A DNA stretch of 64,000 nt from Octopus vulgaris (Eukaryota), in assembly GCA_951406725.2 (NCBI GenBank), contig OX597824.1, positions 70,246,001-70,310,000 of the forward strand, given 5' to 3'. The notes below the pieces were generated by a model. It saw only the letters and a list, made by a program, of their open reading frames with translations. It did not search any database and was not told the DNA's origin. Position numbers and translations under genes: made by a program. The number at the start of each line of letters is the position of its first letter. Within the stretch, counting starts at the first letter, position 1. Below are positions 26,306 to 64,000 of the stretch, piece by piece.

Positions 26306-26323
26306 GTAGTGACAGTTAAGGAA
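26306..26323 (-). other. pros: U12-type (minor spliceosome) branch site and AC 3' splice site
   Basis: Minus strand reads TTCCTTAAC-TGTCAC-TAC|ACTACAACC: consensus U12 branch sequence 10-11 nt before AC. The nearest upstream AG is about 76 nt away. Drosophila prospero has an AT-AC intron just before the homeodomain. Confidence 0.88.
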
Positions 26324-26439
26324 AAAAAAGAGATAACATACAACAAAAAAAAAGACAAACATTTCAAGTATATATACACACCTCTATATTCAACACACAC
26401 ACATATACACATATATATGTATTCATTAACACTTTCTAC

Positions 26440-26820
26440 CTGTATACATTCTCATTTTGTTAGTGGCAACTCCCATTGCGTTTGTTTATTTCCTACTATT
26501 TCCACCACTATGTACCTCTAATCTCATCTCTGACACTGTACATCTCTTGCACACCTCTTACATTTCACATCATCTGTGGTATCTCTGATTGTCTCTGCTT
26601 TCTTCCTCCCAAATACATATTCATCATTGACCATGCTTCAAGCCAGGTTTACTCTTCACTCCGTTCACCTCCATCTCCATCTTCATCCATCTGCCACATC
26701 CCTTTCACATACACTATCACAAACTTATCTAGACATTCACCCTGTTCAATCCTCTGGACTATTTATACATTCACCTTCCTATAACTTGTGAGAACACCCC
26801 CAACACCTCCTCATTACCAT
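26440..26820 (+). mobile_element. Possible decayed Penelope GIY-YIG remnant
   Basis: PFTYTITNLSRHSPCSILWTIY loosely matches FTCxSxNLIYCIxCxxCxxxY; weak. Confidence 0.3.
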
Positions 26821-29800
26821 CTTCTCCCTTTTTTCCAACTTGGGAAGCCATGTGATCTCCTCTACTGCAAGACACAAGTTTCTATCCCTCAGTCATACTT
26901 TAACCTCTCATCACCTGGCACAAAACCATTTCCCCTCAACACTACTCCCCCACTTAGTTGAGGGGGTATTGCCTTGCAAGTTACTTGGTGACCTCACCAG
27001 TGCTGGTGCCACATAAAAGCACCCAACACATCCTGTAGCATGGTTGGCATTATAAAGAATATCCAGCTGTAAAAACCAAGCCAAATAGTTGATGGTGTTT
27101 GGGGCTCTCCTCTGGTTTATTGGCTCATGTCAAACTGTCCAACCTATGCTGGTATGGGAAATGGATCTCAAACAATGATGATGATAATCATAATGGTACG
27201 CAATAAGAAGATGTCAAAATATATATAACAGGACAGACAGATTACTGCCAGACAAGATCAAATACATAAAACCTGATGGCAAATAATGAGAGACAGTCCA
27301 GATAAGAGTTGGTTGGCTATAGAAAATTCACCAGGAGAGCAAATGAAAATTAAAGATAAAATAAATGATAGACAGGTAGTTATTTATGTCATCAGAGCAC
27401 TAATAAATAAGTGACAGAAATATGCATATAAGCATAACTAAGAAGAAAGCAAGAAAATAGTCATTCATATATATGTAGATATCCAAGGATGAAGATCAGT
27501 GTAAAGAAGAAAATTCAAGGTGATTCATTACAGCTGTTTCAGGGATATGTTGACAAGTATCTTCAATTTTTTTCTTTCTTTTCAATATTTCTCCTTAAAA
27601 AAATCTGAACATCTGCCTATTTATAAAAGACTAATATGGACTATCTTTCTACTTTGTCCTTAATTATATTTATACACATATTTGTGCAAATAGGGCAAAC
27701 ATACAATAACTAAGATTTGATTTTATCAAACTTCCATTTGCTTATACACAACAATGAACTTAATACTAATTTTTCAAGTGAAAACATTTATTACCTTAAA
27801 ATGAATTTAAAATAAAATTTAGAAAAAAACAATTTTCTTGTTGAAGCTTACTTCAATAACTGTGATGGTATTTGTACATGTATCTTGTGTATGTGTCTGC
27901 CTCTACATTCATGTGTGTGTGTGTGTCCGTCCTTGCAAGCATGTGTGAGTGTTTGTAAGTATATATGTATGTATATGTGTGAGAATCTGAAACCATGATT
28001 GCATGTGTGCGTTTGTAGGCGTGGATGTGTGAGTACATTTATGTGTGGGTGTGCAAGAAAGAATGAGTGTATGAGAGGGAAAGAGAGAGAAAAAGAGAGT
28101 GTGTGTGTGTGTGTGCACTAGTATGTGCAGGTATGCATGTGAAACAGTATTTTTCTATGCATGTGTATGAGTGTATATAAATGCAGATTTGTATGCATGC
28201 GTATATATTTCAACATCTGTATGTGTGTCCACAGATACATGTGTACTATCTGTATAATACATGGTAGAAAGTGTGACAGATATCACTGTGTTGGGGAGAG
28301 AGAGAGAGAGAGAGAGAGAGAGAGAGATGCAATGAAAATAATAGATAATTATGTTGGCGGTGGTGGTGGTGGTGGTGGTAGAAATGGCAGGAGAAAAGCA
28401 TATGATGAGTGGAGGTGGGGAGTGCAGCATGGTGGTAGTGGTGGTGATGTTGATAGTGATGATGGTGATGTGGCGGCAGCGGCGGTGGCGGTACTGCAGA
28501 CAATTTGTATAGGAATCTCTTCTTTTGTCAGTCTGATAGATAAACAATAATAATAATGGGAAAGGACAAAAATTAAGACACACAAATACTGAACACACAC
28601 ACACACACAATATACATATATATATATATATATATATATATAATATACATATATATATATATATATATATATATATATATATATATATCACTTATACATT
28701 CATATATACACAGGAAATCCCCAATAGATTAGATAAATAGATTTAAAAAAAGTGAAAGTCACCGATATACATACATATATATATATTATATATATACATA
28801 GACATTTATATATATATATATATATATACACACACACATACATACACACACACACCATCTGATAAAATTACACACACATAGATACAGCATATGTTATATA
28901 TGTATGTATGTGTGTATATATATACATACGTACATACATACATAGAGAGAGAGAGATGTTGAGGTTGACAAATCAAGAGTGTAACAATCTGTGCTAAGAC
29001 AGGGTGGCCTAGGGTAAACCTAGCCAAATCACTAGTAATGATGGTCGACAGGAAATCACCAATGTTCTATGACTGCAAAGTTACTATCACGAATAATAGA
29101 CAATGTGTGTGAGTGAGTATATGCATGTGCACACGTGACTGTGTGTGTGTGAGAGGGAGAGTACATATGCAAGCACACACACACAATTTGTTTTATTTGT
29201 TTTTTTTTTGCAAAGTAAAGGTTGACAGTTACAACAAACTTCCAACTACGTACTAATCACAGCACTGATACATGCGCACACACACACACACACATACACA
29301 CACACACGCACGCGCGCACCCAGGCACAGATATGGCTGTGTGGTAAGAAGTTAGGTTTCCAACCACATAGTTACAGTTTCAATCCACCTGAGCAAGTGTC
29401 TTCTGCTCTAGGTTGTTATATATATAATATATATATATATATATATATATATATATATATATATATATATTTTCATCTAGTTTCAGCTCACGAGCTGTGG
29501 CCATGCTGGGGCACCGCCATATATATATATATATATATATATAATAAATAGACTCTCCTGTCATTAGATGACATATGAAGGTTCGACAATTTCTTACCGA
29601 ACAACCACACAGATGAATTGCTTATAGTAATCAAATGTTTGTGTAGAGATAAGTATCACTCCCTATAGAAATCGACATTACCTGTACAGGTGCATGTCAG
29701 ATGTTGAAATGATCGCAGAGCAACATAAAATGAAACACTCTGCTCAAGAACACAACATAACATCCGGTCTGGGAATCAAACCCACGATCTCGCAATCATA

Positions 29801-61600: not shown

Positions 61601-63459
61601 TACAAGTATAGAAACATATATATATATATATATATATATATATATTTATATATATATCAGAAACATACTTGCATACCGTTTCTTAGAAATATTGAGATAT
61701 AAATATGGAGACACAAAGACACACACACACACACACACACACAAACACAGGTGCATGTATATATATATAGTTTATACACATACACACATATATTCATAAT
61801 CACATAATATACTCACACTTTCACAAAGAGACATATATACACATATAATTACACAGACATGTATACACCAGGGGCAAATAAACTATACATTATATATATA
61901 TATATATATATTGTATGTATGTATATTCAATAGACACACATTTTCTAACACATACACATGCAAAAACGCTTGTTTGCATCAAATGTTAATAAAAGAAGAC
62001 TAGCAGAGGGTGGAGGAATGGGGGAAGCAGTGGGTTGCAGAGGCAGGTAGGAAGGAAGGTATTGGGAAGTAATTGGTGATGGTGGTGGTGGTGGAGGTGG
62101 CAGTGGTGGTGATGGTGGTGGTGGTGGTGATGGTGGTGGTTGTGGTGGTGGTGGTGGTTTCTACAAACAGCAAGGGCTGCTGTTAGCTGGAAGCTTTAGG
62201 AATTGATGGTAGAAGGTGGTGGTGGTGGTGGTGGTGGTGGTGGTGTTGGGGAGGGGGGGCTACCTATGGTGGGAGGTAGAAAGGAACTTGTTACCTCCTT
62301 TTGTGTGTGTGTATGTGTGTGTATGTGTGTGTGTGTATGTGTGTGAGTGTGTGTCAATGGGATGTGGGTATGTGGTATTGAGAGAGTGATGTCAGGAGGG
62401 AGGGAGAGACAGAAGATGGCAGAGAGAAAAGACAGAATGGATGGAACTAACAAAGAAATTAGAGTGAAGAATGTATATATTGGAGAGAGAGAGAGAGAGA
62501 GAAAGAAAGAGAGAGAGAGAGAGAGAGAGAGAGAGAGAGAGAGAGGGAGAAAGAAACTGAGATAGACAGGAAAACAATATCATTCAGCATGATGCCAATT
62601 TCTACAGTTATGTTTGTGTGCATATATGTATGTACATGTGTCCTATGTATATGTATGTATCTATGTGTGTGTGTGAGCTTGTGTGCATATATATGCATGT
62701 GTGTGTGCATGTATATATATATATATATATACACACACATACAGACACAAATACATATACACACACATATACATACATGCACACATATACATACATATAC
62801 ATACATACATACATACACACACACACACACATACATACATACATATATACATATATAATGTAGTCTTTGGTGATGGCCAGTCAGAATGTTATCATTGGTT
62901 TTGCAGCTATTATGCTCTTAACAATATCAGACTCATCAGACCACCAGCTGGAGCCACATAACCTCTTTGTGCATATCTATCTATCTATCTATATATATAT
63001 ATATATATATATATATATCCATCTATCTACATACATATATACATACAAACATTACTTTCTCTCTAAGCATAATCATAAAAGTATAAAATTGAGATTTAAC
63101 ACAAATAGGAGTATTATAATTTATATTGAGTATATATAAAACTATGTATATATACATTCAAGCTTAAGGTATATACATACACAAAGAGAGACATATGTTC
63201 GGATATGCAAATGAGGGAAGGAAAGTACCCAATACAAGTTGCAGATTTATATTTATTTATTAAAGAAACTGATGCACCAAGCCTTCTATCACTACATTTT
63301 AGTTTTCCATTTCTGTTTAGCTTCTTCTGCTGTGGAGAAGGGAAAAATGGTACTCAGATACTCAGAATAAATATACAGACACAACGAAGAAAAACCAAGC
63401 AGATATAAATATATGTATATAAATGTGTGTGTGTGTGTGTGTGTGTGTGTGTATAGTAA

Positions 63460-63760
63460 AGGCACTTTGCTTAGTGGTTAGGGTGTTACACTCATGATTG
63501 CAAGATCTTGGTTTCGATTCTCAGACTAGGCATTGCGTTATGTTCTTGAGCAAAACACTTTGTTTCATGTTGGTCTGTGATCATTTCATCATCCGAACAT
63601 GCGGCATGTCATGCCCCTGTACATGTAACGTAATGTTGATTTGATGGAAGGAGTTAGCTTGTGAGTACACAGACATTTGATCACTATAAACAAATCATCT
63701 GTGTGGTTGTTAAGCAAAAAATTGCAGATCTCACATACGTTATCAAATGACAGGAGAATC
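63460..63760 (+). mobile_element. tRNA-headed CORE-like SINE (family F)
   Basis: GCTTAGTGGTTAGGGTGTT head, GGTTTCGATTC B box, GTTCTTGAGCAAAACAC body, tail ending TGACAGGAGA; reverse copies ~29550-29835 and 49895-50175. Confidence 0.75.
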
Positions 63761-63829
63761 CATGATATATGTACATGTATATATGTGTGTATATAAATAT
63801 GTGTGTGTGTATATATATATATATATATA

Positions 63830-64000
63830 GTTAATCCAAACATGAAAACACAATGCGAGGATGTGGAACAAGTATAGTGTTATTGGACACTCAGGAAAGG
63901 AAAGAAAGAAGGAGGATTTACGGTTTGAGCGGAGCTCTTCGTCAGAAACATAGGAAAAGGAAAGATCCAAGGAAGGGAAGACAGAGGAAAAAAAATCGCC
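63830..64000 (-). mobile_element. Penelope-like terminal-repeat remnant
   Basis: Minus strand CTGACGA-AGAGC-TCC-GCTC-AAAC, a hammerhead-like core with a mutated GAAA box. Confidence 0.45.

Follow-up and report, generated by a model that had tools for sequence, protein, structure and literature searches.

We propose that the prospero gene of Octopus vulgaris is interrupted, immediately before its homeodomain exon, by an ancient AT-AC intron, that of prospero/PROX1, and that the octopus copy of it spans 91,832 nt. The stretch analysed, hereafter the window, comprises 64,000 nt of the 2.8-Gb octopus genome (C11:70246001-70310000); the gene lies on its minus strand, and the intron (C11:70364137-70272306, ATATCC...TAC, phase 0, its length being the genomic distance from donor to acceptor) takes up positions 26306 to 64000 of the window, with the remainder running beyond the window end. 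We hold it highly probable that this intron is spliced precisely, with the minor U11/U12 spliceosome as the likely machinery and constitutive splicing as the likely mode, and that its length stems from general intron expansion. The octopus prospero intron is, as such, an unusually long new case within a known intron family. A preliminary description of the window had recognised a U12-type intron orthologous to the fly intron and given its length as more than 37 kb, and both points are upheld by the splice sites described below, by the published fly and human introns and by the measured length, which contains no N.

At the acceptor side the minus strand reads ...TTTTTTTTCCTTAACTGTCACTAC|ACTACAACCTTGACACCTATG... 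across the boundary between intron and homeodomain exon. The U12 branch site TTCCTTAAC (26323-26315, minus strand) is the sole TTCCTTRAC in the window, a motif that by itself is not above chance (0.81 expected, with at least one copy held by 56 of 100 shuffles). The 3' splice site TAC occupies 26306..26308 on the minus strand, and the exon begins at 26305 with ACT ACA ACC TTG ACA CCT ATG. AC dinucleotides past the branch site lie at 26310-09, 26307-06, 26305-04, 26302-01 and further on; the one that is used ends at 26306, 10-11 nt from two candidate branch adenosines to its final C, a short distance with no pyrimidine tract between, which stands at the lower edge of the 11-13 nt optimum (PMC3584512; here and below, statements from the literature refer to excerpts of the papers cited). 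When eight acceptor positions were tested (seven AC and one AG), the frame was kept only at 26306 and 26309, and the spliced contig described below picks 26306. Frame is lost with the AC acceptors at 26304, 26301, 26298, 26292 and 26290 and with the AG at 26272, while the AC at 26309 is in frame but lies 7 nt from the branch A and mismatches the contig. Upstream of the acceptor no AG occurs nearer than 26383-82, at 76 nt, and the first AG downstream, at 26273-72, falls in the K-A codons of HLRKAKL and is out of frame with the phase-0 donor. The preliminary description had placed a branch site and AC right before the homeodomain exon, no AG within about 76 nt upstream and the first downstream AG inside LRK, and on each of these it was accurate.

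The donor side lies outside the window. When the genome was searched with chiton Prospero protein, a large N-terminal exon came up on the same strand at C11:70364213-70365856, beyond the window end at C11:70310000, in keeping with the earlier statement that no upstream Prospero exon is found up to 64000. As a coding exon it extends from C11:70364138 to about 70366321 on the minus strand (about 2.14-2.18 kb, the 5' edge being uncertain) and comprises an ATG and 712 codons ending in ...ETDGSMAL. The U12 donor ATATCCTTT has its first base at C11:70364137, 54 kb past the window end, in phase 0, so that extending the search past 64000 yielded both donor and exon; ATATCCTTTG, a match to RTATCCTT, directly follows the exon end seen in the spliced contig. 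Within the window RTATCCTT is absent from the minus strand, its two matches both being on the plus strand, as had been said of the minus-strand donor, and a relaxed RTATCCT at 54101, the candidate for a donor inside the window, was rejected as unrelated to the junction. Reading through from the large exon into the intron gives ISFELH and an in-frame TAA at +19..21. The perfect donor and the perfect branch site each occur as one sense-strand copy in the 91.8-kb intron.

The acceptor region was checked against four sequencing runs (X9, X21, X22 and X1), all of them RNA by guess. Run X9 holds a 483-nt contig (record 16) that lies on 26150-26305 with 0 differences and whose 26-nt loose end is the end of the large upstream exon. 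The contig is spliced, its opposite loose end being the start of the next, 145-nt exon. The AT...AC ends are thus joined in one contig from one of the four runs, at the AC ending at 26306, and the AT-AC junction that the preliminary description proposed to look for in sequencing data is present there. Among proteins, independent support is given by one full-length 854-aa member of a related cluster (70% identical over the searched region), which carries the prospero junction, and three of the four members of that cluster read through as GQMAM|ISLRAVK. A repeat-like stretch at 25905-25985 of the window attracts many reads and contigs at 90-95% identity in all four runs; these are cross-mapping from a dispersed repeat and no evidence for prospero.

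The genome also encodes the small nuclear RNAs (snRNAs) with which such an intron would be recognised. A search for U12, U11 and U6atac found genes for all three over the Rfam cut-offs (125, 94.5 and 96.9 bits, respectively). The branch site TTCCTTAAC is complementary to GAGUAAGGAAAA of the genome's own U12 snRNA with one bulged A, and the recognition sequences of U11, U12 and U6atac are complementary to the prospero splice sites, making use of the minor spliceosome likely. U6atac-like matches number at least 43 (L027, L028 and 41 further places) on 22 contigs, 40 of them covering the whole model, with at least three matches for U12 and at least five for U11. The two U6atac copies inspected end in a T run and adjoin a common dispersed repeat, which suggests retrocopies or copies carried by repeats.

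Downstream of the AT-AC intron the gene continues on the minus strand. The homeodomain exon (26151..26305, 155 nt, ending ...KWFSNF) matches PF05044 with an E value of 9e-23, its domain matches the solved structures of Drosophila Prospero and human PROX1 in the Protein Data Bank (PDB), and it is followed by a strong U2 donor, GTGAGT. A GT-AG intron of 13,448 nt (12703..26150), supported by the contig end at the start of the next exon, leads to the next homeo-prospero exon (12558..12702, 145 nt), after which a further GT-AG intron of 21,786 nt in total, 1..12557 of it within the window, separates this exon from the last coding exon at C11:70236771-70236586, left of the window. The four coding exons sum to 873 codons and a stop when counted from the first ATG, and the protein downstream of the AT-AC intron aligns end to end with PDB 1XPX/1MIJ (E 2e-83).

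This arrangement, a Prospero gene by PF05044 and by its PDB matches with a phase-0 intron immediately before the homeodomain (junction AL|TTTLTPM), is that of the ancestral intron. Only two minor introns, that of prospero among them, have been retained in every insect and vertebrate genome analysed (PMC3291851), and a published table lists pros as an AT-AC twintron and PROX1 as U12 (PMC2831892, table row 15). Intron 2 of Drosophila prospero is an AT-AC U12 intron of the same gene at the start of the homeodomain, and it is a twintron, in which a U2 GT-AG intron nested inside the U12 AT-AC intron accounts for an additional 29 aa (PMC3291851, PMC3564746, PMC3584512). The octopus intron differs from that of Drosophila in having no in-frame nested U2 intron, with a stop at +19 and no pyrimidine-rich AG, and therefore no second coding isoform is predicted by the twintron route; a coding twintron in octopus was accordingly discarded as a candidate. 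Human PROX1 likewise has a lone U12 intron without a twintron, the ortholog of the fly AT-AC intron (PMC6800510, PMC2831892), at chr1:214171604-214178507 and 6,904 nt long (PMC6800510 Table S3); the octopus intron is 13 times this length, the equivalence of position resting on the papers and on invertebrate homologues. Because human PROX1 also has the U12 intron, the intron is bilaterian in age and older than protostomes, so that the preliminary description, which called it ancestral in protostomes, was right as to its antiquity but set the origin too late (PMC2831892, PMC3291851). Among 102 listed homologues of the N-terminal exon, 92 are without a homeodomain, and in 60 of these 92 the last 70 residues contain IS[FL], the translation of an ATATCC(T) donor. 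This is indirect evidence that molluscs, annelids and their allies have probably retained the donor in the same phase, as judged from these protein ends. A wider tally, in which [IV]S[FL] was sought over the last 120 aa and counted in 88 of the 92, was dropped, being inflated by a conserved PVSLPTSV motif. Our literature search found nothing on the minor spliceosome or U12 introns of cephalopods and, in work on octopus neurogenesis and prospero, nothing on this intron; the excerpt of an octopus neurogenesis paper names prospero in general terms only (PMC8384421). The data files of PMC10639083 may already contain the prospero intron, since Octopus sinensis was in the minor-intron orthology set of that study.

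The size of the intron can be set against that of other introns. The published median intron of O. vulgaris is 2,467 bp (PMC10700109); the mean length of U12 introns rises with genome size (r = 0.87; PMC7367187), and across species the medians of minor and major introns are correlated (rho 0.903; PMC10639083). In a table of human U12 introns, read by eye from row 73 to about row 711 (about 640 introns) and giving no AT-AC/GT-AG subtype, four of the roughly 640 listed introns exceed 91.8 kb, namely those of FHIT (522.7 kb), DIAPH2 (100.3 kb), CCDC171 (98.4 kb) and SLC9A9 (94.5 kb), and the channel genes CACNA1A and CACNA1H hold U12 introns of 50.7 and 40.9 kb (PMC6800510 Table S3). Lengths of tens to hundreds of kb are thus found among human U12 introns, whose subtype the table does not list, and the human genome is similar in size to that of octopus. 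The literature searched yielded no invertebrate U12 intron of comparable size.

As an internal control, U12 introns were located in four-domain channel genes of the same octopus genome from the DNA and the reading frame. An AT-AC intron of a T-type calcium-channel gene (C6:93354718-93561235) measures 206,518 nt and contains no N; it has a perfect donor and branch site, is in frame (KIITWP|WFERISM), and the exons on either side of it align with successive segments of human alpha-1H, residues 108-140 and 144-187. It is five times the length of the human CACNA1H intron and more than twice that of the octopus prospero intron. Two other channel genes are presumably Cav2-like and Nav-like, as judged from sequence motifs. 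By the same means, an AT-AC intron of 56,319 nt was placed at the start of domain I of the Cav2-like gene (C21:366623-310305, minus strand, IIEWG|PFEYM), and the Nav-like AT-AC intron has 1,182 nt; two GT-AG U12 introns measure about 1,195 and about 1,415 nt. Two of the five channel genes yielded no further U12 intron, none at all being paired in the gene on C20 and no first-intron pair being found in the gene on C3, and a size control attempted with PF00999 and PF01145 left too few exons for pairing. The prospero intron therefore falls in the long tail, yet the octopus genome itself appears to hold a longer one, and 91.8 kb is no exceptional length for a U12 intron of a 2.8-Gb genome; neutral expansion is the likely source of that length. 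The preliminary description was correct in that the intron has grown very large, but the 206.5-kb octopus intron and the four longer human ones take away any exceptional standing.

In its composition the intron has 34% GC, 22% tandem repeat and zero N, and dispersed repeats are common in it. No Rfam family reaches the gathering score within the intron in the 124 kb searched, and 25 open frames of at least 110 aa remain after a complexity filter, all seemingly repeat-derived by eye; nested genes were accordingly rejected. Decoy donors were counted on both strands (RTATCCTT 0 sense against 4 antisense, RTATCC 25 against 28), and depletion of decoys as a signal was dropped as the counts are too small for a claim. 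A pairing of the intron ends through an RNA bridge was likewise rejected, the best inverted match scoring 78.8 bits and 11 of 20 control windows scoring at least as high.

In the mechanism that we favour, U11 would bind the ATATCCTTT donor during transcription of the large N-terminal exon and, some 92 kb later, U12 would pair with TTCCTTAAC, after which the AC 10-11 nt downstream would be chosen by how far it lies from the branch point. With an exon of only 155 nt and a strong GTGAGT donor behind it, factors of the major spliceosome could help to define the acceptor across the exon, and splicing would yield the 873-aa Prospero. Such bridging between minor and major machinery across exons has been described (PMC8034651, PMC3584512), and help of this kind is plausible here, given a 155-nt exon followed by GTGAGT. 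As a mode of recognition, cross-exon definition is at least as likely as direct U11/U12 pairing across the intron, which the preliminary description had assumed. Full-length Prospero appears to need this U12 splice, because there is no nearby in-frame U2 route to the homeodomain, as the preliminary description had supposed.

Several observations weigh against so simple an account. The length of the intron exceeds the published O. vulgaris median 37-fold, that of the human PROX1 intron 13-fold and those of the two other introns measured in the gene 4- to 7-fold, ratios with which selection on intron length remains compatible, and the comparison within the genome consists of five non-random introns from four channel genes of our own choosing, called from DNA and frame. 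Support for the junction in the octopus lineage is one contig of depth 4.2 from one of four runs whose status as RNA is a guess; the raw-read run X21 has zero coverage of the exon, X22 covers the exon and the adjoining intron alike at about 1-2x, neither with junction rows, and X1 listed no piece on the homeodomain exon. The read evidence, furthermore, covers the acceptor side only, so that alternative donors, retention and intronic termination are outside its reach.

These points leave some room for a regulatory gate, in which the long U12 intron would delay or limit full-length Prospero, stopped or unspliced transcripts would give a 718-aa protein without a homeodomain, and minor-spliceosome activity would set the ratio of the two in neurogenesis. 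The in-frame TAA at +19 and, at +905, the one candidate AATAAA poly(A) signal of the intron's first 3 kb would allow such a product, the public 718-aa model has exactly the ISFELH end, three of four members of the related cluster are read-through forms, PROX1 is among the source genes of an 'inefficient minor intron' model (PMC6717393), and three octopus neural genes have AT-AC introns above 50 kb. Open reading frame callers and annotators restricted to GT-AG introns will, however, yield read-through proteins at any AT-AC donor, and these recur across many homologues; the retained minor introns in mouse are the shorter ones (PMC6717393), and one AATAAA in 3 kb is below the average density of the intron itself (105 in 91.8 kb). 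We consider the gate unlikely. A broader form of it, in which the octopus neural minor introns (prospero 92 kb, T-type 207 kb and Cav2-like 56 kb) would have been inflated into timing or threshold devices, incomplete prospero splicing would free a stable 718-aa form, and the minor spliceosome would switch Prospero between non-DNA-binding and DNA-binding forms in brain development, strikes us as decidedly doubtful; if true, octopus would have arrived, by way of intron length and termination within the intron, at a functional counterpart of the insect twintron.

Removal of most of the span by the major spliceosome, through nested or recursive GT-AG sites that would leave the U12 sites to one isoform or to a last step, has some candidate sites to its credit: a fair U2 donor, CAG|GTATTT, 36 nt into the intron and matching 7 of 9 consensus positions (L004:1384-1392, minus strand), two AGs 76-78 nt upstream of the AC that are open in the homeodomain frame, and three YAG|GTRAG motifs in the intron. 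Yet the in-frame stop comes before the GT sites at +36 and +63, no GT precedes the TAA at +19, the two upstream AGs have only 8 of 16 pyrimidines, GT donors within the exon score at most 6 of 9, a pyrimidine tract precedes none of the three YAG|GTRAG motifs (0 strict matches), and the twintron is reported, in the excerpt of PMC3291851, as limited to insects, all of which makes stepwise removal very improbable. The CAG|GTATTT at +36 is a candidate cryptic U2 donor should U12 splicing fail. We give least credence, and very little at all, to a real intron whose length has been inflated by assembly error: the repeat-rich DNA, with 22% tandem repeat and common dispersed repeats, would invite such an error, but there is no N in the 91,832 nt, across the 204 kb examined there is a single gap, 53 kb upstream of the donor, and the exons are collinear in order and strand with full-length homologues. 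That gap (100 N) is at C11:70417685-70417784. A long but otherwise ordinary AT-AC intron, removed in one piece, remains the reading that we prefer.

The public annotation of the gene departs from this structure. A public O. vulgaris 'hypothetical predicted protein' of 718 aa is 100% identical to the large exon and ends in ISFELH, while a separate public 'prospero homeobox 1' of 155 aa starts at MHLRK. The preliminary description had foreseen that the homeodomain exon would be mis-modelled, and the gene is indeed split in two, but the fragment begins with MHLRK and not with MFVFFF. The same split into two pieces recurs in the models of Capitella (P0187/P0231), Lottia (P0129/P0236) and Tegillarca (P0191/P0019) as in Octopus (P0122/P0227); two-piece prospero models at the AT-AC intron are a systematic annotation error. 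Some public full-length models (P0141, P0155 and P0222) bridge the intron with extra residues, as inserts of the ISF...HTSTLTPM type. Such inserts may reflect GT-AG junctions that were forced or, for the insect, the long form of the twintron.

The gene model of a core regulator of neurogenesis is hereby repaired, a single predicted protein of 873 aa replacing those of 718 and 155 aa, and the corrected model affects probe design, orthology calls and single-cell counting. No new mechanism is revealed unless length-dependent regulation is shown. Finally, the U12 intron shared by fly and human is extended to cephalopods, invertebrate AT-AC introns can reach about 90-200 kb (the 206.5-kb one being called from DNA only), and long AT-AC introns of this kind would be clean substrates for distinguishing intron-wise from exon-wise recognition of minor introns.

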